Positions 9,285-62,331 of a DNA stretch of 64,000 nucleotides are shown piece after piece (position 1 is the stretch's first letter; every line of letters begins with the position of its first letter). The notes under the pieces are model-generated. The model did not search any database. It was not told the DNA's origin and worked only from the letters and a program-made list of their open reading frames with translations. The stretch is taken from sequence record OZ346219.1; one strand, given 5' to 3'. This DNA is from a phage. The translations under genes and the position numbers were made by a program.

Positions 9285-9605
9285 TTATTTATAAATTTCG
9301 ACGATCTGCGCTGGAGTCAGCCCGTCTACATTAATCAGAGTATCAAGCCCAAAACTACGGAAACCTTCAACTGCAATTTCATATACTGGCAAAGATGTTT
9401 CTGATTCTTTACGCGGTTTTTCAACATTAGGAACTAACCACTTTTCGTATGTTTCAAACGGCATCAGTGCCGGATCTCGCGTGGCGATCATCTCACGGAC
9501 AGTACCATCTTTCTTAGTAAACTGCAAAGAGTGAGTACCGACCGAAAACATTTTCTTTAGTGCTTCACGAAGTGCGATATTATCAACTTGTTCAGTCATT
9601 ATCAA
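9285..9605 (-). CDS. hypothetical protein (106 aa)
   Basis: ORF between cd and gene 31. Confidence 0.4.
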   Translation of the reverse strand: MIMTEQVDNIALREALKKMFSVGTHSLQFTKKDGTVREMIATRDPALMPFETYEKWLVPNVEKPRKESETSLPVYEIAVEGFRSFGLDTLINVDGLTPAQIVEIYK

Positions 9606-13634: not shown

Positions 13635-14033
13635 TTAACTTTCCAGAATATCGCGAGCTTCGTTACGCTCCTTGATGATTTTCAGGACAAATTCCAGTTT
13701 TTCTTTGTTCAGCGTTCCATTTTCCATTGCTTCTTTGACGGTAAACACTCCGCCACCTTGCCCGTATACAGTGACAGTGATTTCACCTAACATCGTGGTA
13801 TGAAAACCGCCAATTTTCGGTGATTCGAAAGAAACAATTACCTCGCGAACAGTATTACCGTCGTTGATTTCTGAGAGGGTAATGTCGTTTTTGTAGGCGG
13901 TTGCTTTAACCATACGGATCAGCATAGTCTGATCTGGGGAGATGGTCATTTTGTCCATTGCATGTTGCAATGCAGCGTAACCGAAAACTTTAACGAAGTC
14001 CAGAACATCTTTGCGAGTTTGAAATTTAATCAT
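13635..14033 (-). CDS. hypothetical protein (132 aa)
   Basis: ORF behind promoter cassette 14067-14095. Confidence 0.45.
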   Translation of the reverse strand: MIKFQTRKDVLDFVKVFGYAALQHAMDKMTISPDQTMLIRMVKATAYKNDITLSEINDGNTVREVIVSFESPKIGGFHTTMLGEITVTVYGQGGGVFTVKEAMENGTLNKEKLEFVLKIIKERNEARDILES

Positions 14034-14066
14034 CTTGATACTCCTTAGTTGTTTTGGTATGGGAGT

Positions 14067-14095
14067 ATCTTACTACTCCCGTGATATGCTGTCAA
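14067..14095 (-). promoter_or_regulatory. early-type promoter cassette with palindrome across the -10
   Basis: TTGACA, 17 bp, TAAGAT; GGGAGTAgtaagaTACTCCC. Confidence 0.55.
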
Positions 14096-14104
14096 CTGCT
14101 TTTT

Positions 14105-14254
14105 TTATGCAACCGCAAACATCAACATTTGAACATTCTTGGCTGTCTGGCTTTCAAAGTTCTGACATTCTTTGATAATGTCCTCTACTTTCTCGCCGGA
14201 GATCTCCGCGTAAGTTTCGATTGCCATTTTCAGTACCGCGTCAAAGTTGTTCAT
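14105..14254 (-). CDS. small hypothetical protein (49 aa)
   Basis: Hand-called ORF (MNNFDAVLKMAIETYAEISGEK...) behind promoter cassette 14293-14321; below ORF-track size cutoff. Confidence 0.3.
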   Translation of the reverse strand: MNNFDAVLKMAIETYAEISGEKVEDIIKECQNFESQTAKNVQMLMFAVA

Positions 14255-14292
14255 TTGATTCTCCTTAAAGTGTATTTCGTTTCGATGGGGGT

Positions 14293-14321
14293 ATATTACT
14301 ACCCCCGTTTCATGCTGTCAA
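14293..14321 (-). promoter_or_regulatory. early-type promoter cassette with palindrome across the -10
   Basis: TTGACA, 17 bp, TAATAT; GGGGGTAgtaataTACCCCC. Confidence 0.55.
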
Positions 14322-14540
14322 CTACTTTTTAATGACAAGTTCGAATTTTGCTACCTTGCGTCCTCGTTTATTGAAAGCAACCCACGGACGGTTTTCAATG
14401 TAGAACAATTCTTCGCCAATAATGAATACTGGCTGATTGTAAAGGCGACCCATCAGGTCACGCTGGCGAATGGTAGTAGATTCGTATACTTCGCCTACTA
14501 CAAAGTGTTTGCTGATAGAGTCGGTGCAAGTAAATTTCAT
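14322..14540 (-). CDS. hypothetical protein (72 aa)
   Basis: ORF behind promoter cassette 14574-14602. Confidence 0.4.
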   Translation of the reverse strand: MKFTCTDSISKHFVVGEVYESTTIRQRDLMGRLYNQPVFIIGEELFYIENRPWVAFNKRGRKVAKFELVIKK

Positions 14541-14573
14541 TTTGATTCTCCTTTGTTTCGTTTCGATGGGAGT

Positions 14574-14602
14574 ATCTTACTACCCCCGTTATTCAGTGTC
14601 AA
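14574..14602 (-). promoter_or_regulatory. early-type promoter cassette
   Basis: TTGACA, 17 bp, TAAGAT; imperfect GGGGGTAGTAAGATACTCCC element. Confidence 0.5.
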
Positions 14603-14609
14603 CTACTTT

Positions 14610-14828
14610 TTACTTGTTGTATTCATTCCACCACTGGGTGAGCTTATCAATTATTTTTGTGTTTCTATCCAACTTCTCCCACCGTTTTCTAGGGTTTATC
14701 AACCGGAATAGGTAAGGTGTACTTGTTAAGTGAACTCGGTCAATGTAGTGATTGATATACTGCTTTTCAATTCTAAGTTTCATCTTTTTACGATGAAAAT
14801 ATGCAATGACTTGTTCTTCTGTTTCCAT
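14610..14828 (-). CDS. hypothetical protein (72 aa)
   Basis: ORF behind promoter cassette 14853-14881. Confidence 0.4.
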   Translation of the reverse strand: METEEQVIAYFHRKKMKLRIEKQYINHYIDRVHLTSTPYLFRLINPRKRWEKLDRNTKIIDKLTQWWNEYNK

Positions 14829-40823: not shown

Positions 40824-41582
40824 TTACTTGCAAACGTATTGATCTACATCAATTGCGCCACCGAATGTAGGATGACGTTTTTCAAATCGAATAGTTCCGT
40901 CGTTTGGTTCGAAAACGGAGTATTCATATAGATCTTTCTTACCAACATTCTTATAAAACCCGCCTTTAGTCATAACGGTTTCTTGTACGTTTGCTTTGTG
41001 TACGTTGTATTCATCAATGTATACAAAATCAACCATCTTCCCATTTTTAATGGTTACTTTAAGATCTCCTGGTTGATTTCCATATTTGGCATACAGTGGC
41101 GCTTCTTTAATTTTTGTGGAAATTCCATCTTTCATACTCCACTCATAACGAACGGTGCATTGATAGGTAAAAGTTTCGACCTTCGGTTCTTCTACCACTT
41201 TTGCTTCCTGTTTCGGTTGTTCTTCTTCAACCTTCGCAGAAGTCTCTGAATCGCTTTCTGACGCGGTTTCTTCTTTAGGTAATACATTCATCAAGTTTTG
41301 GATTTGAGCGTTGTATACAGCCTCCAGTGGCTGAATCTGCCCGATATTGATCATTGTGTCACGAACAGTTTTATTCCAGTTTCGTTGCTCTTGTTTCAGA
41401 GACGGATCAATCTTAACAGCCTTAACATACACCTCATGAAGTTTAGAGTCCAGTGCGGAGATAGACTCATTAGCACAAATAAACTTCTCTGATTTGGTAG
41501 TAGCTTTAGCGCAATCAAAGGACGCAGCGTTAGCACCGAAAGCAGTAGCAGAAAGAACGATAGCAGCGATAATGTTTTTCAT
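40824..41582 (-). CDS. secreted protein with LprI/DUF1311-like N-terminal domain
   Basis: Signal peptide MKNIIAAIVLSATAFGANA; then CAKATTKSEKFICANESISALDSKLHEVY...QRNWNKTVR; E/K-rich linker; C-terminal domain ends in Cys. Confidence 0.5.
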   Translation of the reverse strand: MKNIIAAIVLSATAFGANAASFDCAKATTKSEKFICANESISALDSKLHEVYVKAVKIDPSLKQEQRNWNKTVRDTMINIGQIQPLEAVYNAQIQNLMNVLPKEETASESDSETSAKVEEEQPKQEAKVVEEPKVETFTYQCTVRYEWSMKDGISTKIKEAPLYAKYGNQPGDLKVTIKNGKMVDFVYIDEYNVHKANVQETVMTKGGFYKNVGKKDLYEYSVFEPNDGTIRFEKRHPTFGGAIDVDQYVCK

Positions 41583-41616
41583 AATATATTCCTCAGTGTT
41601 TTGTCTTGATGGGAGT

Positions 41617-41645
41617 ATCTTACTACTCCCTTAATCCGGTGTCAA
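41617..41645 (-). promoter_or_regulatory. early-type promoter cassette with palindrome across the -10
   Basis: TTGACA, 17 bp, TAAGAT; GGGAGTAgtaagaTACTCCC, identical core to 4460 and 14067. Confidence 0.55.
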
Positions 41646-41652
41646 CTACTTT

Positions 41653-41808
41653 TTAAATTTCTTCTACAGTAAAGTCTTCAATGTTGTTGTGCTCGGAGAA
41701 CGTTGCCAGACCAGCATTCCATGCATCATCCTCAGAGAAGAATACACCGTAACGTTCATATCCTTTAGCGCCTTCAAATTTAACCATTAATTTGTGAGTA
41801 TGTTTCAT
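41653..41808 (-). CDS. small hypothetical protein (about 51 aa)
   Basis: Start trimmed to Met30 downstream of promoter cassette 41840-41868. Confidence 0.3.
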   Translation of the reverse strand: MKHTHKLMVKFEGAKGYERYGVFFSEDDAWNAGLATFSEHNNIEDFTVEEI

Positions 41809-41839
41809 TTTGATTCTCCTTCGTTGTCTTGATGAGTTT

Positions 41840-41868
41840 AGTATAGGGGATCGCCGATCCCCTGTCAA
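41840..41868 (-). promoter_or_regulatory. early-type promoter cassette with spacer palindrome
   Basis: TTGACA, spacer GGGGATCGGCGATCCCC, TATACT. Confidence 0.55.
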
Positions 41869-41882
41869 CCAGTTTTTAGAAA

Positions 41883-42143
41883 TTATTTTCGCCATTCACC
41901 TGAAACAATGAAGTTTGTAAAGTGATTGTGGTCCGTGATAATGTCATTAAGTACCATATGCGGATATGCTTTAGTGTAATCACGTTTACGATCAGTCATC
42001 CAACCAACGAAAGTCGGTGCAAAGTACGGCACACCGTCAGACGATGCCATATTAAACCCTTTGTCAGCCATAAATGCAGCCGCCCTAAGATTTTTAATTG
42101 AAGTAGTGCGACTAATTTCAAAAACTTTATCGGTAAAATTCAT
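41883..42143 (-). CDS. hypothetical protein (about 86 aa)
   Basis: Start trimmed to Met8. Confidence 0.35.
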   Translation of the reverse strand: MNFTDKVFEISRTTSIKNLRAAAFMADKGFNMASSDGVPYFAPTFVGWMTDRKRDYTKAYPHMVLNDIITDHNHFTNFIVSGEWRK

Positions 42144-42144
42144 T

Positions 42145-42354
42145 TTAAGCCCCCGCTCGTGCATTAATACGCATTTTCTGCATAGCCATGATCTGGCTTA
42201 CTGCTTCTTCTTTACGTTCTTGCGTGATAACGTGACCAGATTCCGCAAACTCTCCCGCAACTTCTTCTACAATCTCGCGAACTTGAGAACGTCCAAAGAT
42301 GCGGTTTCCTTCGTAGCTCATAAATTCAGTCACTACTTGCTCAATAGATTTCAT
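42145..42354 (-). CDS. hypothetical protein (69 aa)
   Basis: ORF behind promoter cassette 42387-42415. Confidence 0.35.
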   Translation of the reverse strand: MKSIEQVVTEFMSYEGNRIFGRSQVREIVEEVAGEFAESGHVITQERKEEAVSQIMAMQKMRINARAGA

Positions 42355-42386
42355 GTGATTCCCCTTCTTTCGTTTGGTATGGGAGT

Positions 42387-42415
42387 ATATTACTACTCCC
42401 GTTTCTTTACGTCAA
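42387..42415 (-). promoter_or_regulatory. early-type promoter cassette with palindrome across the -10
   Basis: TTGACG, 17 bp, TAATAT; GGGAGTAgtaataTACTCCC. Confidence 0.55.
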
Positions 42416-42422
42416 CTCGTTT

Positions 42423-42665
42423 TTAGAAATTTTTCGCTTCTTCTTCGGTCATCATAACCGCGCATTCGTGCATAACTTTGAAAACCGGATCAATCATGTC
42501 GAATGCTTCGCGGGACAGTTTACGAGAAGCGATTTTGATTGCTTCTACGTCTTCTACTACAGGAACAAAAACAGTTTTCAGTTCGTCGAGGACGGCAGCT
42601 TCTTTTTCATTCAGGAAGATCCCAGCGTCGTACAGTGCAACTTCGATAACATTAACTTTAACCAT
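42423..42665 (-). CDS. hypothetical protein (about 80 aa)
   Basis: Start trimmed to Met22 downstream of promoter cassette 42700-42728. Confidence 0.35.
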   Translation of the reverse strand: MVKVNVIEVALYDAGIFLNEKEAAVLDELKTVFVPVVEDVEAIKIASRKLSREAFDMIDPVFKVMHECAVMMTEEEAKNF

Positions 42666-42699
42666 TTTTATTTCCTCCAGTTCGTTTCGGTATGGGAGT

Positions 42700-42728
42700 A
42701 TAATACTACCGATGACCTTTGGCGTCAA
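42700..42728 (-). promoter_or_regulatory. early-type promoter cassette
   Basis: TTGACG, 17 bp, TATTAT. Confidence 0.45.
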
Positions 42729-42930
42729 CTAGTTTTTTGTTATTTTCGTGAAATTTTTTCGTCGCCTCATGTGCTTTTCGCTGGGCTTCTTGTTGTGCTT
42801 GCTGGCGTGCTGCCTCTTGCGATGCCATAACAGACGCATTTGCAGCAGTTACAGCCGCGACCATCGCTGCGGTATTAGCATTTACCGTACATGCACTAGC
42901 CAGCAAAGCAATCGCAATCATTTTCTTCAT
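42706..42930 (-). CDS. small secreted protein (74 aa)
   Basis: N-terminal signal peptide MKKMIAIALLASACTVNA; Q/A-rich helical remainder. Confidence 0.4.
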   Translation of the reverse strand: MKKMIAIALLASACTVNANTAAMVAAVTAANASVMASQEAARQQAQQEAQRKAHEATKKFHENNKKLVDAKGHR

Positions 42931-43097
42931 AGTTTCCCCTTTAGGTTATCTTCGACCTTCACCCATTCCGCGTATTCTTGCGCGGCTACTTTCGGATTTA
43001 GGCCATCTTCGTACATTGCATCAAGTAATTCTTTGTCGGTTGGCTTATACCCTAGATAAGCCTCCACCTGATTTTTCCAAATTTTATACCAGTTCAT
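42927..43097 (-). CDS. small hypothetical protein (about 56 aa)
   Basis: Start trimmed to Met24 to remove overlap with upstream ORF. Confidence 0.3.
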   Translation of the reverse strand: MNWYKIWKNQVEAYLGYKPTDKELLDAMYEDGLNPKVAAQEYAEWVKVEDNLKGKL

Positions 43098-43101
43098 ATT
43101 A

Positions 43102-43374
43102 TCACCAATCAAGAGCGCGTGTCCCTGCGTCTTCCCATGCTTGATCCATAACAGCCTTGAAAACATATTCTAGAGTATCATCTTTAGAGAATCCGAAGAC
43201 TTTAGACGGAATATCTTCGATTGCTACTCCCGCAACTTCTGCATTACGCGCTTGGCAATAATGCAACTCTAAGTTATCGAGATAGCGACCGCCTAATTTC
43301 TCCATATCATCCCAGCATTTCCAGTAACCTACTTTATCTGCAATTGCCAACACTTTGCTGTTTTCGTTGTTCAT
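43102..43374 (-). CDS. hypothetical protein (about 90 aa)
   Basis: Start trimmed to Met22 downstream of promoter cassette 43406-43434. Confidence 0.35.
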   Translation of the reverse strand: MNNENSKVLAIADKVGYWKCWDDMEKLGGRYLDNLELHYCQARNAEVAGVAIEDIPSKVFGFSKDDTLEYVFKAVMDQAWEDAGTRALDW

Positions 43375-50514: not shown

Positions 50515-50895
50515 TTAATCTTTTTTCAGGGCATCCATTACTCGCTCTGCGATCAGTTCTCGTAAGCACTGATAGCCATGATATTTGATGGCAATGTCAC
50601 GCAGATCATTAACCAATTCCCGTACTTCATGGTCTTTCAAATCGTCTCTGTATTTCGATTTAACCGTGTCTTTAGGTGGATTGTGGATAACCTGAAAACC
50701 TTGTTCTGCAATCACTGCGGCTTCGCGCTGGCGTTCATGCTGTACTGTATTTTTGATCAGGTCTGCTTCCATGAACTTTGCCATACTCATCATCATGTTA
50801 TTCTTTTTGCTCATTATTAAATCCTCATAAAAGAAAAGGGAGACTCCCATTATAGAGAATCTCCCTTGTATGTCAAGTGTTATGATTGCATCCAA
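50515..50895 (-). CDS. hypothetical protein (126 aa)
   Basis: ORF overlapping gene 39 stop. Confidence 0.4.
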   Translation of the reverse strand: MDAIITLDIQGRFSIMGVSLFFYEDLIMSKKNNMMMSMAKFMEADLIKNTVQHERQREAAVIAEQGFQVIHNPPKDTVKSKYRDDLKDHEVRELVNDLRDIAIKYHGYQCLRELIAERVMDALKKD

Positions 50896-54069: not shown

Positions 54070-55461
54070 TCAAATATAGTCTACTCGATACCGCGCACGG
54101 GTAACACCCACATATAATAACTGCATTGCCAATTCAAAGTCAACATTGTCTGTACACATGCAAGGAGTATACAGGAACACGCGGTCTACGCTGATCCCTT
54201 GTGACTTATGAATAGTGCAAGCTGGTAATGCTTTTACATTTAAAAACATACGTTTCATCGTCCAGAAAGAGTCCCAATCTGGTTTAAATTTTGGATTCTC
54301 TTTCTTCATTTCGCGATAATGTCCGGCGACCGTATTCAGATAGATAGAGAAAATGTTCTTCTGACGTTGTTCTGTCAGAATGTTGATTTCTACCAAATCC
54401 GGTTTATCTGTAGTGATTCCGACTGCATCTAAACCGACTTTCTGATTTAGGATTTCTTTGTCTTCGTCATCATCGACGCTTTCCACTTTCAGAGTATAGC
54501 CTAAAACTGGTTGCGGATCTACCCCCGTGCAACGTAATGTAAATTCACGCGGTATAACCTCTTTAACTCGGATCATCTCGCCATTGTTAAAAATAACATT
54601 GGGAATCTTCTTTCCGCGTTCATCTCGCAGATATTCGATTAACGGTTCCTGAGTAACCAGAATTTCATCTACAATCACTGGTTCATCGGTGTTATAAACG
54701 CGCTTGCGCACAATTTCATTGAGTTTTTCGACGCTCTTGTTAGTGTAAGCCAGAATACGGTTTTCTAGAAGGTCTTCCGGCGTTTTAACTGTTTCGAAAT
54801 AATGCTTCATAAACTCCGGCAGAGTTGAGCTATGGAATACACCCTCGTTGCCGCACTGCTTTTCGAATACCCATTTACCATTACGGACAGCGGTCGCCAC
54901 ATCAATGATCGGTGCATTAGATCGTTTAATTTCTGTCAACTCCACGTTTTGAAAATTTTCGTCCGTGAAGAAAGGAGAAATTGACGTTGCACCGCTCGGA
55001 TCAACTGGTCGTAACTGGTGTGGATCGCCAACTGCAATAACAACAATTCGACCATTGATACTCTTCATGAGAATATCAAATAGTTTCTTATCGACCATAC
55101 TCGCTTCATCAACAATGATGATCTGAACATCATCTAGCTTAGGAGTATCTTTTTGCTCAAATACTTGAGTATCTTCATAGTTGGTCGGGTTAAGACGCAA
55201 TAAAGCATGTAAAGTAAATGCTTGACGACCTACCGCTTTACTCAAAACTTTTTTAGCCTGGTGGGTAGGCGTTGCCAAAACCACACCAGTTACACCACGG
55301 CGGACCATTTCCTGAACAATGAATTTCATCATTGCGGTTTTACCAGTACCCGCCGCACCACGGACAGTTGTATGCTTCTTTTGTTCAATGCGTTTCATTA
55401 GAACATCAAAAGCATGTTTTTGTCCGTCTGTCAACATATCGAAAGTTAATACTCTGCTCAT
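54070..55461 (-). CDS. dda: DNA helicase Dda (SF1)
   Basis: 463 aa; Walker A GAAGTGKT, Walker B IIVDEASM. Confidence 0.85.
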   Translation of the reverse strand: MSRVLTFDMLTDGQKHAFDVLMKRIEQKKHTTVRGAAGTGKTAMMKFIVQEMVRRGVTGVVLATPTHQAKKVLSKAVGRQAFTLHALLRLNPTNYEDTQVFEQKDTPKLDDVQIIIVDEASMVDKKLFDILMKSINGRIVVIAVGDPHQLRPVDPSGATSISPFFTDENFQNVELTEIKRSNAPIIDVATAVRNGKWVFEKQCGNEGVFHSSTLPEFMKHYFETVKTPEDLLENRILAYTNKSVEKLNEIVRKRVYNTDEPVIVDEILVTQEPLIEYLRDERGKKIPNVIFNNGEMIRVKEVIPREFTLRCTGVDPQPVLGYTLKVESVDDDEDKEILNQKVGLDAVGITTDKPDLVEINILTEQRQKNIFSIYLNTVAGHYREMKKENPKFKPDWDSFWTMKRMFLNVKALPACTIHKSQGISVDRVFLYTPCMCTDNVDFELAMQLLYVGVTRARYRVDYI

Positions 55462-55775
55462 TATCCTAAAATCCTCACCTTGCGAACACAGATAGTATTG
55501 AGTTCTCGCCGTACCCGTTCTTTTTCATATTCAGGAATTTTATATTCGATACCATCCCGAACAATTTCAGAAGACCGGATTATACCAAATTTTCGTTTAG
55601 GCACAACCTTGTATTTCGGTTCACCTGCCAATAGACTCTCACAATAATCTATCTGATCACACATTGACGCTAACGCAGCATCATGTGTTTCGCAAGTTAG
55701 GACGCGACCTTTCGCGTCCACTGAGTATTGAAAGAATCCGTCTTTATCACGATAACATACAGCAAATACATGCAT
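55461..55775 (-). CDS. hypothetical protein (104 aa)
   Basis: ORF upstream of dda. Confidence 0.35.
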   Translation of the reverse strand: MHVFAVCYRDKDGFFQYSVDAKGRVLTCETHDAALASMCDQIDYCESLLAGEPKYKVVPKRKFGIIRSSEIVRDGIEYKIPEYEKERVRRELNTICVRKVRILG

Positions 55776-56530
55776 TATAAACCTACCTTAGCTTTCATCA
55801 ATTCAATCCACGACGCATCAATCGGAAGCCCGTATTTCACGCGTTCTTTTTGTGCTGGCGTTAAGTTCTCATACTTAGAAAGAGATTCAATCAAAACGCT
55901 GGTATATTTTAGCACGATTTCGGTATTGTTTGCAATAGCCTTTAGTTTTTCCTCTTTCTTGTTGATTTCGCTAAGGGCTTGCTTGAGATCTGCAATTTTC
56001 TGATAACGTTCTTCCATACGGAAGAGAGTATTTTTAATCGCTCGCTCTGCTGCCTCTGCTTTCTCCGGTTCGTTGTGCTTTTTGTGGCGCTCGATTGCTA
56101 ATTTCTTTTCTTCGATTGCCATTTCCTGATTTTTGATGCGATTCTCGTTAAGTTCGATCCACTCGATGTACTTCGCACGTAGGGCAATTTCATCATCAGA
56201 AAGTTTACCGTTAGTTCCTAGTTCCTGGATCTCTTTAAGAGATTCGATAGTGTGATTGCCACGGAAAGAATTGTATTTCAGTTTAACCGGAATTACATTG
56301 CCATCAACATATCCCAGATTGCAATCAATGCGCTCTAAGGAGAGTCCGTCATCACCTTCACCGAAAGCCTCACCTGAATAGGCACAATGAGTCTGGCGGT
56401 AAATGTTACGAACAGTGACTAAGCTCATAGAGAAGTCTTTGTTGCGACGTGAAGCACCAGCCATGATAGAGTTCAGCCGGAAAACAACCAGCGCCAATTC
56501 TTCGTTAGATTTAAAAGCAAACAGTTTCAT
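55775..56530 (-). CDS. hypothetical protein with C-terminal coiled coil (251 aa)
   Basis: ORF behind promoter cassette 56560-56588; K/E-rich heptad-like C-terminal half. Confidence 0.4.
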   Translation of the reverse strand: MKLFAFKSNEELALVVFRLNSIMAGASRRNKDFSMSLVTVRNIYRQTHCAYSGEAFGEGDDGLSLERIDCNLGYVDGNVIPVKLKYNSFRGNHTIESLKEIQELGTNGKLSDDEIALRAKYIEWIELNENRIKNQEMAIEEKKLAIERHKKHNEPEKAEAAERAIKNTLFRMEERYQKIADLKQALSEINKKEEKLKAIANNTEIVLKYTSVLIESLSKYENLTPAQKERVKYGLPIDASWIELMKAKVGL

Positions 56531-56559: not shown

Positions 56560-56588
56560 ATTATTGTCTATCTGGTTTGTGCTGTCAA
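56560..56588 (-). promoter_or_regulatory. early-type promoter cassette
   Basis: TTGACA, 17 bp, AATAAT. Confidence 0.45.
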
Positions 56589-56591
56589 CAC

Positions 56592-57095
56592 TTAAATTAA
56601 AGAAAATTTGTAAATCTCTATCAGATCGCCATTACACGCGTAAACTTCCTCGATCTCATCAAGGATCATGGTCGTCCCTGTCTTGTATATGCACTCGCGC
56701 TCATCTGCCAACATAGCATACAAAGACAGTCGAGTAGTCGGATTGTCATACTCTTTAGACACCACTCGGTCAATAGCATGTTCGTAATAATTCATGCAAG
56801 GCTTGGTAGGTTTTATTGCAATAATCTTTCCTGTTGCATAAACATCGGTTGCAAAGTCCTCTGCTGTTGATTGCAGTGGCGTAAAGCTCATAGGACGCTC
56901 TACAACGAAAGAATCACCCACAATTAAGGTATCCAGCTTACGGCCTTCTCTTTTTCTCACACCGCGATACAAGGCTTCATGATGCACTAACCGCTCAGTC
57001 TTTTCAATCAATCCATTAAGGATCGACATATCGATATTTTCTTTAGAGTTCATCACTTCATCAATGATGTTAAGTTCTTCTGGTGTAAATTGCAT
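56592..57095 (-). CDS. putative mono-ADP-ribosyltransferase (ModA/ModB-like)
   Basis: Ordered R-S-E-like motifs (LYRGVR ... STAED ... ERE or EIEEV) with typical spacing; T4 mod genes lie between dda and 56. Confidence 0.35.
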   Translation of the reverse strand: MQFTPEELNIIDEVMNSKENIDMSILNGLIEKTERLVHHEALYRGVRKREGRKLDTLIVGDSFVVERPMSFTPLQSTAEDFATDVYATGKIIAIKPTKPCMNYYEHAIDRVVSKEYDNPTTRLSLYAMLADERECIYKTGTTMILDEIEEVYACNGDLIEIYKFSLI

Positions 57096-57100
57096 AATAA

Positions 57101-57128
57101 AAAAGCCTCCAATCTTTCGACGGGAGGC
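57101..57128 (-). terminator. terminator-like hairpin in the leader of 56592-57095
   Basis: Minus-strand GCCTCCCGTCGAAAGATTGGAGGC followed by TTTTTTATT then ATG; the GGAGG in the 3' stem is the only Shine-Dalgarno candidate. Confidence 0.5.
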
Positions 57129-57164
57129 ATAATAAAACCATTATAGAGTAGTGTCAACTAATTT

Positions 57165-57689
57165 TTAGTAGCCGCGTTCTTGACGGGCGAAGTTTTCAGC
57201 ATTTTTCAGATAGTACAGAATAAAGAGTTCTTGAGCGTCAATACCCAGCGGGATCATCTTTGACAGAATGAAGTGGATCGCGTCCACAAATTCAAATTTC
57301 ACTTCAAGCTGATCTTCCGGTGACAGTTCAGAGAATTTACGCGCTCGCGCTTCTCCGTGGTTCTTTTTCCACATTTTCCAGATTGCACTTGCATCTTTAC
57401 CATTGGACATTCCACCCAGCGATGTGTAAAGCTCTCGTGTTTCGTCTGCGATAGCGTCATCCATCCGTTGCATCCAATCCAGCATTTCACCGCAAGTCTC
57501 TAGCTTAGTTGGATTTGGGACCCAATCAAATTTTTCGGATAATGCAACCTGCAAACCAGTTTGCATTTCGAGCATCACCTGAAACGGATCTTTACCTTCT
57601 GCAATCGCGTGATGATATGCGGCGATAGCCGCGTTAATATCTTTTTCGTTAACCAGACCAGCACAAGAATTAAATTCTGACATATTCAC
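57165..57689 (-). CDS. 56: dCTP pyrophosphatase
   Basis: 174 aa; C-terminal SPEDQLEVKFEFVDAIHFIL...LYYLKNAENFARQERGY closely matches T4 gp56. Confidence 0.85.
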   Translation of the reverse strand: MNMSEFNSCAGLVNEKDINAAIAAYHHAIAEGKDPFQVMLEMQTGLQVALSEKFDWVPNPTKLETCGEMLDWMQRMDDAIADETRELYTSLGGMSNGKDASAIWKMWKKNHGEARARKFSELSPEDQLEVKFEFVDAIHFILSKMIPLGIDAQELFILYYLKNAENFARQERGY

Positions 57690-57697
57690 CTCATTAA

Positions 57698-58726
57698 TTA
57701 AAATTTACAATATTTCATAAACCGCATTTTAGCCATCAGACCTTGTACGGTGTTCTCTTTGATATATTCCATGATCTGGTCGCGTGTAGCGCCCTCGTCC
57801 TGAATCATGGCGTTAACGTCTTTAGAATGCCACGGGCAACGGTCCCACAAAACAATCTTTTCCCCTGCATTGATAAACTTTTCCAGTCGGTGCATTGTAT
57901 CGGCAGACCGTGGTTCCGCATCAAGTACAAACACTCGCTGATCAGGGAAAGGAATTTCATCTAATCCCAAAGTACCGCCAGTAATTGCACACCCGTTATC
58001 AATAAACAATGAATCGATCGGACCTTCTAAGAAATACACTGGTTTACTCGGATCGGCGCGTTCAAGACCATAGACCTTACTCGCTAACTCATGAGTTTTA
58101 ATCGTCATATATTTGGTCTTTCCGTAGTCCTTTCTCAATGCTCGCCCCTGAATGGATTCTATCTTGTTCTCGCGGTTAAAGATAGGAATCACTAAACGCG
58201 GTTCAGGTTGTGGATTCTTGAAAGTATCAGCCTTAATGTGATTTGCTACCTTTTGCCATTCTCTCGTGAAATACAGAAGATCCCATTTATCGTGGGGAAT
58301 GCAACGATCACTGACATACTTTATTATAGGATGATTAGCCGGAAGAGTATCTAATCTCTCGCAGAAAGGCAATGTTTGCACTTTCTTAATCTCCGGCTTT
58401 TCTACCTTTTTCAGTGGCTTGAACGTGGTGTTCTTGTGGTCTCCTTGTTCCTTCCGTCGTTCCATAAGCCATTCCCTGAATAGGTCTGGCTTATATTGTT
58501 TAAGAAATTCACCTAACGGCTGATTGTAGTTACAGTTGAAACACGATGCGCGTAACGAGTCTTTATAAGTGTAGATTCTGAAACGCGCCATTGTGCTATT
58601 CTTTTTGGAATCTCCGCAGATCGGACATGAGCATACCAATGTAAATGATTGAGTGTGTAGGCGTTTAAAGTTTCTCTCACCATATATCGCCTTCTCTGCA
58701 ATCTCACAATCTGCGTAGTATATCAT
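57698..58726 (-). CDS. 61: DNA primase
   Basis: 342 aa (same as T4 gp61); N-terminal zinc ribbon CSCPICGD...CFNC. Confidence 0.85.
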   Translation of the reverse strand: MIYYADCEIAEKAIYGERNFKRLHTQSFTLVCSCPICGDSKKNSTMARFRIYTYKDSLRASCFNCNYNQPLGEFLKQYKPDLFREWLMERRKEQGDHKNTTFKPLKKVEKPEIKKVQTLPFCERLDTLPANHPIIKYVSDRCIPHDKWDLLYFTREWQKVANHIKADTFKNPQPEPRLVIPIFNRENKIESIQGRALRKDYGKTKYMTIKTHELASKVYGLERADPSKPVYFLEGPIDSLFIDNGCAITGGTLGLDEIPFPDQRVFVLDAEPRSADTMHRLEKFINAGEKIVLWDRCPWHSKDVNAMIQDEGATRDQIMEYIKENTVQGLMAKMRFMKYCKF

Positions 58727-58730
58727 AATA

Positions 58731-59285
58731 TCACCTCTCTTTATATCGTGATGTTCTGGTCTGACTCTTCCATATTCTTCTTATGGTTATCGTGTGCACT
58801 CCGTATATTATAGCAAGTTCTTTTACAGACGCAACACCCTGTTTAGACCTGATCTCTTCTACTTGATGGTCAGTTAACTTTGCGTTTCCGTGTGTTTCTC
58901 CATAGTTTTTGTTCAATCCTTCTTCTTTAGCGTGTATAAGATTTTCTCTTTGTGTTGTCCACTCAAGGCCATACAGATCAAAATCCTTTTTATCACCAAA
59001 TTTGTGATTTACTACAGGGTAGTTGTTTGGATTTGGTATAAATGCTTCTGCTAATGCCCTATGAATATAAACGCCGACGGTCTTTGGCTTGCCCGACTTT
59101 GTTCTGTTGGCGTAATCTCTTATATTACAAGAGACATAACCTTTTGTTATTTTAGTTGATCTGACCTTGCCAGTGGCTTTATTTCTTAGTTTACCATAAG
59201 AACTAATTTCATATTCTGGATACGATACGCCCATATAAACAAGGTCTTTCCATTCTTCTGGATGTTCATCACAATACCGTTTCAT
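58731..59285 (-). CDS. free-standing HNH homing endonuclease
   Basis: YEISSYGKLRN (NUMOD4-like) then HNH-like core VGVYIHRALAEAF...NHKFGDKKDFDLYGLEWTTQRENL. Confidence 0.7.
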   Translation of the reverse strand: MKRYCDEHPEEWKDLVYMGVSYPEYEISSYGKLRNKATGKVRSTKITKGYVSCNIRDYANRTKSGKPKTVGVYIHRALAEAFIPNPNNYPVVNHKFGDKKDFDLYGLEWTTQRENLIHAKEEGLNKNYGETHGNAKLTDHQVEEIRSKQGVASVKELAIIYGVHTITIRRIWKSQTRTSRYKER

Positions 59286-59300
59286 GATGTTATTAACCTC

Positions 59301-59504
59301 TTATAGCTCAAATTTCATGAAAGTTCCTACACTTTCATTTTCATTCTCTCCGTTTTCATCTAAGCCAAATTTGTAGACACTACCATCTGGCGATGTGTAA
59401 GAGAATACACGAAAACGGCCTACCGAATCAAGTTCTGTAAATTCATATTCTTTTCCGGCTTCAAAAAGTGCATATGTGCTTTTAAGACATTTCATCGTAA
59501 TCAT
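59301..59504 (-). CDS. hypothetical protein (67 aa)
   Basis: ORF upstream of HNH gene. Confidence 0.35.
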   Translation of the reverse strand: MITMKCLKSTYALFEAGKEYEFTELDSVGRFRVFSYTSPDGSVYKFGLDENGENENESVGTFMKFEL

Positions 59505-60918: not shown

Positions 60919-62331
60919 TTAGAAAGTCATGTTATTTGCTAGCTCGTCGAGTTTTTCTCGTTTCTCGGCTTGCTGTGCGCTTTGTGGTTTAACTTGTGCA
61001 TTCTCCTGATCTGCGATCTGGTTTGGTACTTCATACCAACGCTGATTGCCTTTTTTCACACCAACGTTAAACCGTGAATAATAGTTCTTATCACCGTAAC
61101 GAGACTTGATCTGCTTCATGAGTTGGACGCCCATTTTAGCCAGGTCTTCGGTTTCGATAACACCCAACATAAAGTCGGCAGTAGCCGGAAGACCTGCTGA
61201 TTCAGCGGTATCACTCATGTTAAGGTCGGAAGCATCCCAACCCGCGCGGGTAGTCTGTGCCGCAGTCCAACCAACAACATCCCACTTAACAAAAAATCCT
61301 CGCAGTTCTTCCGCAATCGCCTTAACTAGTGTGTAACTATTTTCAGAGTATACACGCAAGCGAGACGATGCGCAAATCCCCAGATAGTCAACAATCACAA
61401 CATCAGGTTTAAACTGTTTCTTGAGTCGCAATTCATTCATTAACGCCTCAAAGTGATTGGAGTTCGCGCCACCAGTCGGATACTGCTTGATCATCAATTT
61501 TCCAACCGGACGATCTCCGATCTTCTTATTCTTAACACGCTTCATACGTGCGGAATATTCCGCAAAAGAAACATTACCATTATCCAATTCATCTAATGTA
61601 ATGTCAAGCAAGTTTGCGTCGATACGTTTGGCTACGACATGCTCTGCCATCTCCATTGAGATATACAATACATCATAACCACATTCCATATAATCCGCAG
61701 CAAGAGAACATAATCCAAGCGATTTACCAACATTTACACCAGCAAGCAACACATTTAGCGTTTTTCTTTCCGCACCTCCTTTCGTGATTTTATTCAACAT
61801 CGGCAGCTTAAACGGGATCTTATTCGCCTTAGTCTGATATAGCAAGAATCGTTTTTCAAAGTCATTAAACCAGTCATGACCTACATCAGAATCAAACGTA
61901 ATGGATAGTGCTTCCTGCATGATCTCAGGAATAGCACCCTCACTCGGCAATTTCTTATTCTGTTTCTCTTTTGGTAGTTGTGCGTTCGCCTGAATCTCTA
62001 GCGCCCGTGACATTGCATTATACATGGCACGGTCACGAATAAATTTTTCGGTTTCCTTCATTAACCAATCAAGGTCTTCCGGTGTATTCTCCAGCGAATC
62101 GAGAAGAGTTTTCGCCCCTTCATATGTTGTCTGATTGCCTCTCTCCTTGTCTAAAGCAATCTGTAATGCTGTTGGCGTAGGAATATTGGAATATTCGTCT
62201 ACGTGCTTTTTAATCAGCTTATAAATCAGTTTTTCTTCGTCTTCGGTGAAGTAGTCCGCTTTAAGGTGAGGCCATACATTCGTAAAGAATGCGCCATTGT
62301 AAATCAACTGTGAAAAGATAGTTTTAATCAT
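60919..62331 (-). CDS. 41: replicative DNA helicase (DnaB-like)
   Basis: 470 aa; Walker A GVNVGKS; T4 gp41 size. Confidence 0.9.
   Translation of the reverse strand: MIKTIFSQLIYNGAFFTNVWPHLKADYFTEDEEKLIYKLIKKHVDEYSNIPTPTALQIALDKERGNQTTYEGAKTLLDSLENTPEDLDWLMKETEKFIRDRAMYNAMSRALEIQANAQLPKEKQNKKLPSEGAIPEIMQEALSITFDSDVGHDWFNDFEKRFLLYQTKANKIPFKLPMLNKITKGGAERKTLNVLLAGVNVGKSLGLCSLAADYMECGYDVLYISMEMAEHVVAKRIDANLLDITLDELDNGNVSFAEYSARMKRVKNKKIGDRPVGKLMIKQYPTGGANSNHFEALMNELRLKKQFKPDVVIVDYLGICASSRLRVYSENSYTLVKAIAEELRGFFVKWDVVGWTAAQTTRAGWDASDLNMSDTAESAGLPATADFMLGVIETEDLAKMGVQLMKQIKSRYGDKNYYSRFNVGVKKGNQRWYEVPNQIADQENAQVKPQSAQQAEKREKLDELANNMTF

Follow-up and report, generated by a model that had tools for sequence, protein, structure and literature searches.

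The stretch of phage DNA analyzed here (sequence record OZ346219.1; 64,000 nucleotides (nt), referred to as the window) carries a modB gene on its minus strand, and this gene and its leader are the subject of the present analysis. In the leader, an early promoter, an intrinsic-terminator hairpin, and the ribosome-binding site of modB are predicted to overlap. Over the 1-kb region around modB, the identity is 99.9% with Escherichia phage W115 and 99.1% with RB49 (Krischvirus, Straboviridae), and by this measure the source of the window is an RB49-like (Krischvirus) coliphage. Genes 61 and 56 lie upstream of modB, and srd, dda.1, and dda lie downstream (Table 1). The gene order of T4 matches that of the window, but with soc, mrh, and two mod genes interposed. 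The initial annotation of this DNA had placed the open reading frame (ORF) in the slot of T4 modA/modB, and the flanking genes 56 and srd bear this out.

The whole leader fits the 69-nt gap after gene 56. On the minus strand it consists, in order, of TAA, AAATTAG, TTGACA, a 17-nt spacer (ctactcTATAATggttt), TATTAT, GCCTCC, C, GTC, GAAA, GAT, T, GGAGGC, TTTTTTATT, and ATG. In a consensus scan, TTGACA-17-TATTAT matched the sigma-70 consensus at 11 of 12 positions, and the GEC-3S record (HE978309) marks exactly these two hexamers as -35 and -10. An RB49 early promoter predicted at 9446-9496 (Pe:9496) corresponds to window positions 57121-57171, and the last base of the RB49 promoter model corresponds to 57121 (Nolan et al., 2006, supplements). 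The initial annotation had paired TTGACA with a TATAAT only 6 bp away and had concluded that this was not a normal cassette. The spacing was read correctly, but the conclusion does not hold, since a second -10, TATTAT, lies at 17 nt and is both annotated in GEC-3S and predicted in RB49. The TATAAT within the spacer lacks both a -35 at a distance of 16-18 nt and a TG extension, and it reads AACAAT in the homologous leader L024, where the 17-nt-spaced -10 persists as TATGAT. It is most likely not the functional -10. In two further homologous leaders, L006 and L005, the -10 reads TATTAT and TATTGT, respectively. L005 (~1466-1471; IMG/VR UViG_3300045988_033703) comes from a 99%-identical relative, and the conserved A at position 5 of its -10 is lost, which may be a natural down-mutation of the modB promoter. 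A late promoter at modB was also considered and was rejected, as the leader contains no TATAAATA; the promoter is of the sigma-70 early type. RB49 has neither MotA nor middle promoters (PMC1524935), so early promoters of this kind would carry prereplicative expression.

The hairpin that follows the -10 has an outer stem of 6 G/C-rich bp, which encloses a C/U mismatch, an inner stem of 3 bp, and a GAAA tetraloop, and a G-U pair is present in the stem. It folds at -15.0 kcal/mol (z = -3.85), which was matched by 0 of 200 shuffles. A strong hairpin with a U-tract, ending 9 nt before the ATG, had been pointed out in the initial annotation together with the GGAGG in the 3' stem as the only candidate ribosome-binding site. 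The first observation is confirmed by the folding, and the second agrees with the sequence: nothing purine-rich lies between the GGAGG and the ATG, and the GGAGG is the sole Shine-Dalgarno (SD) candidate. In RB49, TransTerm called a 10-bp terminator, 'modB<--56', with a confidence of 100 at 9430-9453, which corresponds to window positions 57105-57128 (Nolan et al., 2006, supplements). The published RB49 promoter and terminator predictions overlap by 8 nt. A simple terminator scan of the window overlooked the hairpin, owing to its internal mismatch. Like canonical rho-independent terminators, the hairpin has a G+C-rich stem, a GNRA tetraloop, and U6 directly after the stem. Unlike them, it has a 5' arm that overlaps the promoter discriminator and a 3' arm that is the SD of the next gene. 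The hairpin is a predicted intrinsic terminator of the upstream gene 56, and its 3' arm holds the modB SD. A bidirectional terminator was rejected because the plus strand has no T-tract. A riboswitch or protein-binding leader was likewise rejected, since an Rfam search of the modB leader returned no credible riboswitch or leader family and no alternative anti-terminator pairing was evident in the leader fold.

Cassettes of this general kind are known from RB49 and phi1 as promoter-early stem-loop (PeSL) elements (Arbiol et al., 2010, PMC2839356; Comeau et al., 2014, PMC4122927). A PeSL is made up of a stop codon, an AT-rich stretch, a consensus sigma-70 -35 and -10 at 16-18-nt spacing, a stem-loop in one of five positions, an SD, and an ATG, and the five positions include one just downstream of the -10 (PMC2839356). 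Promoter activity was demonstrated for 206/205 and terminator activity for 211/210, while clones of the 193/192 PeSL promoter bore point mutations in the -35 or -10 (PMC2839356). A census of the minus strand of the window yielded 39 promoter-plus-ORF cassettes. Most of these have a stem-loop either between the -35 and -10 (GGGGATC...GATCCCC) or across the -10 (GGGAGTAG-TAAGAT-ACTCCC), and most have an unpaired 'AGGAGAATCAAA-ATG' ribosome-binding site. The modB cassette is the only one of the 39 with a clear SD wholly within a stable stem. It shares with PeSLs the TAA-AAATTAG-TTGACA-17-TATTAT series, the intergenic location with an AT-rich start, a stable stem-loop of the 'downstream of -10' class, and a CGAAA leader motif past the -10 that is common to 22 sister cassettes. 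It differs from them in that the SD lies inside the 3' arm of the stem-loop and not 3' of it, the stem is GCCTCC/GGAGGC and not the usual G(n)-loop-C(n), and the flanking genes are conserved genes and not ORFans. Judged by its composition, the modB leader is a PeSL-type cassette, a variant of the class rather than a textbook member. The 22 sister cassettes are near-repeats on the minus strand, with A-T 7-8 nt past the -10, then C/A-G/C-AAAC, and then 'AGGAGAATCAAA-ATG'; examples have their ATGs at 1122, 1373, 1731, 2072, 2848, 4427, 4659, 5783, 6166, 14033-14828, and 41582-43374.

In these 22 cassettes, the six bases past the -10 read A-C-a-C-c-C, and the seventh and eighth bases are A-T without exception, with CGAAAC or a variant of it coming next. 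At this place the sequence of the modB leader is GCCTCC-C-G-TCGAAAG, and its G-TCGAAA aligns with the canonical A-TCGAAA. The published RB49 promoter consensus has C at -3 to -1 and was reported to be consistent with 5'-end mapping (PMC1524935). From this geometry, we infer that transcription of modB starts at C57122 (strict spacing) or at G57121 (motif alignment). With such a start, the 5' arm (57128-57123) would be the untranscribed -6 to -1 segment, and the mRNA made from the modB promoter itself would therefore most likely lack the hairpin. The fold of RNA that begins at 57121 reaches only -2.3 kcal/mol (z = +0.5), compared with -15.0 kcal/mol for the hairpin. In a read-through context of 170 nt, the SD has an unpaired probability of 0.00, and in the RNA from the predicted +1 this value is 0.49. 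Among the 39 cassettes, modB has the most fully occluded clear SD, and its switch is one of the two largest; the only comparable switch is that of the cassette with its ATG at 50814 (0.10 to 0.70). The latter cassette (50814-50876, minus strand) has a terminator-like hairpin, AGGGAGATTCTC-TATAAT-GGGAGTCTCCCT, with a U-tract and with the -10 in the loop, and it precedes a 99-aa ORF of PHROG 15065, whose function is unassigned.

The leader was also compared with its homologues. A blastn search with the leader gave ~62 Krischvirus records at at least 90% identity, and the remaining 760 matches cover only the end of gene 56. At this level of identity the leader DNA is thus confined to Krischvirus records, and for this reason two metagenomic homologues, L006 and L024, supply the covariation. 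All elements are kept in L006 (protein 75% identical), where a C/C mismatch replaces C/U and the tract is U7. L024 (protein 62% identical; Pfam Mod_ADP_RT) reads TTGACA-17-TATGAT-GCCCCC-A-UUC-GAGA-GAU-U-GGGGGC-UUUUUGUU-AUG. Its U-tract is U5GUU, its loop has changed from GAAA to GAGA and is still GNRA, and a compensatory change of a stem pair from U-A to C-G turns the SD from GGAGG to GGGGG. The comparison with L024 supports the view that the 17-nt-spaced -10 is genuine, that the abutting hairpin is selected, and that the SD is retained inside the stem.

We consider it likely that the leader works as a promoter-terminator cassette, which ties modB to its own early promoter and insulates it from upstream transcription. 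RNA polymerase arriving from the 61-56 replication-gene unit would transcribe the whole hairpin and the U-tract and would terminate. In RNA that reads through from gene 56, the modB SD would be locked in the stem, and such RNA would be untranslatable at modB. Host sigma-70 RNA polymerase would initiate at TTGACA-17-TATTAT, and because the 5' arm GCCTCC forms the -6 to -1 of this promoter, the transcript would start just past the arm, at C57122/G57121. The resulting modB-srd mRNA, 5'-(C)GUCGAAAGAUUGGAGGCUUUUUUAUUAUG..., would be unable to form the hairpin, so that the SD would be free and ModB would be translated. The srd cassette begins 4 nt past the modB stop and has no hairpin, so modB transcripts would continue into srd. 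ModA is highly toxic to E. coli (PMC2988021), and this is a plausible reason to insulate modB. The initial annotation had suggested a possible dependence of expression on read-through or on a structured leader. This is not supported: a consensus early promoter stands directly upstream of modB, and the read-through RNA is the very species predicted to be terminated or untranslatable.

Table 1. Features of the modB locus and of related leaders. Positions are those of the window unless a locus handle is given.
Feature	Position	Strand	Remarks
Gene 61, primase	57698-58726	-	
Gene 56, dCTPase/dUTPase-type NTP pyrophosphohydrolase	57165-57689	-	PHROG 173, E = 5.2e-37; Pfam dUTPase_2; gp56 in RB49
TAA stop of gene 56	57167-57165	-	Opens the AT-rich start of the modB cassette
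-35 TTGACA	57152-57157	-	Consensus scan; GEC-3S minus_35_signal; inside RB49 Pe:9496; invariant in homologous leaders
In-spacer TATAAT	57140-57145	-	6 nt past the -35; hexamer of the initial annotation
-10 TATTAT	57129-57134	-	17 nt from the -35; GEC-3S minus_10_signal
Predicted intrinsic-terminator hairpin	57105-57128	-	GCCTCC-C-GTC-GAAA-GAT-T-GGAGGC
Hairpin 5' arm GCCTCC	57128-57123	-	-6 to -1 region of the promoter; first base directly past the -10
Putative start, C57122 or G57121	57121-57122	-	7 or 8 nt past the -10
Hairpin 3' arm GGAGGC	57110-57105	-	
SD GGAGG	57106-57110	-	Within the 3' arm; 10 nt from the ATG
U-tract	57096-57104	-	T6 (57104-57099), then ATT, up to the start codon
modB ORF, 167 aa	56592-57095	-	ATG at 57095-57093
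R44 codon	56966-56964	-	Predicted catalytic; in LYRG
S70 codon	56888-56886	-	Predicted catalytic; in M-S-F-T
E132-R-E134 codons	56702-56694	-	Predicted catalytic ExE
srd promoter, TTGACA-17-AATAAT	56560-56588	-	No hairpin; promoter in GEC-3S annotation; RB49 Pe:8927
srd	55775-56530	-	
dda.1/Y01A	55461-55775	-	
dda	54070-55461	-	
T4 modB leader	L003 4122-4165		
ATGs of the other nine T4-like leaders	L013 811; L014 856; L015 838; L016 712; L017 166; L019 704; L020 564; L021 605; L022 581		

Sequestration of the SD in a long RNA initiated upstream is known from T4 e, soc, 49, and I-TevI (Uzan and Miller, 2010, PMC3014915), and the modB leader is alike in this respect. In those genes a promoter lies in or beside the DNA for the 5' strand of the hairpin, and the shorter transcript is translatable (PMC3014915). 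Their internal promoter is late (gp55, TATAAATA) and delays expression, whereas that of modB is an early sigma-70 promoter, for which the geometry and the 22 sister cassettes would place the +1 just past the 5' arm. The modB hairpin also differs from theirs in doubling as a predicted intrinsic terminator.

Related hairpins are found at the modB position of other T4-like phages. In 10 of them, from at least seven named genera, the gene at this position has an early promoter whose -10 belongs to the 5' arm of an RNA hairpin of 9-18 bp, and the 3' arm of the hairpin is the SD plus the AUG. These are T4 and nine further phages, namely Salmonella STP4-a, JS10, Klebsiella EI, Serratia LC53, LF82-1, Citrobacter NM4.3, KaAlpha, KpV477, and KMI13. 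The T4 modB promoter, annotated in X98695 (-10 at 77-82, ribosome-binding site at 100-103, ATG at 109), lies within a 14-bp hairpin (UAUGAUAGCUUCUG/CGGAGGCUAUCAUG; -18 kcal/mol, z = -5.6) in which the -10 region pairs with the SD and AUG; T4 modB RNA truncated near the +1 folds at -4.1 kcal/mol. The z values of the modB-position hairpins range from -2.5 to -8.8, and in seven of the eight leaders tested the fold was matched by 0 of 200 shuffles. Stem sequences vary from genus to genus and include G-U pairs and compensatory changes. JS10 and LF82-1 have separately promoted second mod genes, and the leaders of these are unstructured (z = +1.7 and -0.6). For the T4-type modB leaders, the RNAalifold consensus was weak (-6.5 kcal/mol) because MAFFT had misaligned the hairpin arms; individual folds and an AUG-anchored pair table were more informative, and the leaders were judged by these. 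In a census of 86 T4 genes, only gene 49 (a known case) and 39.1 have a more sequestered initiation region than modB, which thus ranks third, and modB has the largest switch (0.21 to 0.64) among genes with an adjacent strong early-type promoter. Several other early genes have milder versions, and the design is not unique to modB.

It is possible, though we would put it at somewhat less than an even chance, that the pairing of the modB ribosome-binding site with its own -10/discriminator DNA is a selected, lineage-wide device that limits translation of a toxic enzyme to transcripts of its own immediate-early promoter. If so, ModB synthesis would be confined to a brief pulse, and the longer transcripts that later sweep the region would never yield the protein. 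In the RB49 group, the predicted pairing of ribosome-binding site and promoter region is fused to a terminator. No description of the -10/SD-AUG pairing at modB was found in reviews, with key older papers lying outside that literature check. In Klebsiella phage KaAlpha (MN013084; L020 530-566), the annotated start of the putative ADP-ribosylase, an ATG at L020 530, is in fact part of the promoter's -10 (TATGAT). The true start is likely the SD-preceded ATG at L020 564, which is homologous to the starts of the other genera.

The modB hairpin might serve only as the terminator and 3'-end stabilizer of gene 56, with the SD overlap incidental to the packing of the leader into 69 nt and with no selected block of translation. 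The phage genome is tightly packed, other PeSL stem-loops of the window, variously placed, leave the SD free, and TransTerm calls a plain terminator, all of which fits this explanation. We nevertheless regard it as rather unlikely. The compensatory pair of L024 alters the SD itself and the SD stays in the stem, and the hairpins of the 10 T4-like phages, which are not terminators, pair the SD and AUG with the -10 region; their presence at the modB position and their absence from the two second mod genes point to selection for occlusion. A different role would lie at the level of DNA, where the cassette would act mainly as a PeSL module for recombination, by which phages exchange genes, and the stem-loop would be conserved for that. 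PeSLs mediate recombination and mini-circle formation in RB49 and phi1 (PMC2839356), and the CGAAA motif is common to 22 other cassettes. The modB cassette, however, sits between T4-core-type genes (56, modB, srd) and not among ORFans of a hyperplastic region, and the G-U pair of the stem is evidence for structure in RNA, not DNA. Such a role, which we think improbable, would add to the transcriptional one and not replace it.

Were the TATAAT at 57145-57140, for instance, or imprecise start choice to place the transcription start before the hairpin, the mRNA would carry a 5' hairpin as a self-attenuator or stabilizer, and ModB would be kept low. TATAAT is a perfect -10 hexamer, and 5' hairpins stabilize mRNAs. 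Strong damping is plausible for enzymes of the ModA/ModB type, which are toxic to E. coli (PMC2988021). The lack of a suitably spaced -35 or TG extension and the absence of TATAAT from L024 make such a start very unlikely. RNA initiated there would moreover reach its own terminator ~30 nt past the start, and the 22 sister cassettes put the +1 7-8 nt past the 17-nt-spaced -10. Another reading is that modB has no usable promoter of its own, as the initial annotation implied, with ModB made only from read-through RNA after an attenuation-like opening of the hairpin. The full pairing of the SD in any RNA that contains the whole hairpin and the 6 bp between TTGACA and TATAAT agree with this proposal. 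It is contradicted by TATTAT at 17-nt spacing and by two independent sources that annotate or predict the promoter, and the homologue with 62% identity has kept a -10 at the TATTAT position and not at that of TATAAT. Neither an anti-terminator pairing nor an Rfam riboswitch or leader family came to light, and we consider expression by read-through alone very improbable.

Several observations count against the promoter-terminator cassette that we favor. The hidden Markov model promoter score in RB49 is 11.3 for modB and 28.9 for srd, and the modB discriminator is G+C-rich, which is atypical; the modB promoter may therefore be weaker than those of its neighbors. The start site is deduced from consensus geometry, and the base at the canonical +1 is C at modB, compared with an invariant A in the other cassettes. 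By the partition function, RNA from the modB promoter has its SD accessible only about half of the time, and the spacing of 10 nt between SD and AUG is longish. The overlap of SD and terminator could merely reflect tight packing, and the benefit of occluding read-through RNA is conjectural.

In itself, the modB locus is ordinary and essentially known: both the gene and the type of promoter-terminator cassette in front of it have been described, and the overlap is tidy but unsurprising. Predictions from 2006 and 2012 had already put the promoter and the terminator on precisely these bases, and no new type of control is needed. The locus illustrates how densely signals can be stacked in T4-like phages, as a single 24-nt hairpin would at once terminate upstream transcription, form the discriminator of the promoter, and hold the ribosome-binding site. 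The stacked signals may also account for the way in which a toxic enzyme of host takeover is bound to one early promoter. The cross-genus pairing of the -10 with the SD and AUG at modB offers a small, testable hypothesis on the timing of ModB, a protein that is topical because of RNAylation.

The ORF is predicted to encode an early enzyme of host takeover, the only arginine mono-ADP-ribosyltransferase of the ModA/ModB type in this RB49-like phage. Its product matches PHROG 832, 'RNA polymerase ADP-ribosylase' (E = 3.7e-20), the ORF is annotated as modB in RB49, and dozens of relatives carry an ADP-ribosylase or ModA/ModB label. BLASTP matched T4 ModB (3e-10) and T4 ModA (3e-6). By tblastn, 59 Krischvirus records contain the protein at 95% identity or above, and a further 274 T4-like phages have it at ~28-34% identity. 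The initial protein search gave three close relatives, and IMG/VR scans gave 3 and 9 loci. A profile search recovers PF26816 proteins only, and precomputed annotation assigns PF26816 (Mod_ADP_RT) to the 98%-identical protein P0001 and also to P0003. Scanned locally against Pfam, the ORF gave no significant match (best DUF5507, E = 0.13). A PDB sequence search with a 5-sequence profile returned only insignificant matches to the mono-ADP-ribosyltransferase effector XopAI (E = 0.49), and a fold search was therefore needed. The AlphaFold2 model, built from 13 sequences, has a pLDDT of 90.8 and a pTM of 0.83. The top 50 Foldseek matches in the PDB are R-S-E mono-ADP-ribosyltransferases without exception. 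They include Certhrax, C3, Iota, CDTa, VIP2, Plx2A, and ExoS/T, with a probability of 1.00, and the best match is Certhrax (E = 5.5e-7, TM 0.62).

For the residue comparison, the ORF product was aligned with T4 ModA/ModB and 12 database homologues. R44 of LYRG is invariant in 13 sequences and aligns to R73 of ModB in the (Y/W)-R-G strand (R72 of ModA); mutation of the ModB residue (R73A) abolishes activity (PMC10468400). S70 is likewise invariant, S70-F-T72 forms the S-x-S/T motif, and in the AlphaFold2 model S70 lies in strand 69-72, which is followed by helix 75-85. E132-R-E134 is nearly invariant, aligns with the EQE of ModA and ModB, and is followed by a C-I-Y hydrophobic strand. The initial annotation had read the gene, which was already annotated, as an ADP-ribosyltransferase from ordered R-S-E-like motifs. 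That reading agrees with the profile and BLASTP matches, the residue conservation, and the fold it had proposed to look for, which AlphaFold2 and Foldseek predict. Its arginine (LYRGVR) and ERE motifs were placed correctly, but the serine of 'STAED' (S76) is not the one expected to be catalytic, which is S70, and 'EIEEV' is irrelevant. The modB product is like T4 ModA and ModB in its genomic slot (56 ... mod ... srd, dda.1, dda), in sequence (23-32% identity), in the (Y/W)-R-G, S-x-T, and E-x-E motifs, and in the predicted ADP-ribosyltransferase fold. It is unlike them in that there is one mod gene here and two in T4, and its 167 aa (200/207 aa in T4 ModA/ModB) are without the ~30-residue N-terminal extension. 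It is marginally nearer ModB than ModA. Because of this small difference, the missing extension, and the single mod gene, its substrate (RNA polymerase alpha as opposed to S1/EF-Tu/trigger factor, or RNAylation) is not assignable.

Two minor observations concern the replication genes of the window. A cassette-like stretch at 61607-61545 was dropped from the census because it is internal to gene 41 (60919-62331). There, on the minus strand, TTGACA-17-GATAAT (61579-61607) and a GCGGAATATTCCGC hairpin (61545-61565) stand just before an in-frame ATG. This strong promoter-like site and the hairpin are probably coincidental, but the ATG could conceivably serve as an internal start for a C-terminal helicase fragment. 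Between gene 61 and a 67-aa ORF (59301-59504) lies an HNH endonuclease ORF of 184 aa (58731-59285, minus strand; PHROG 59, E = 1e-31). In RB49, the small ORF017c lies within 10 nt of the primase gene, and the HNH ORF of the window looks like a homing-endonuclease insertion relative to RB49.

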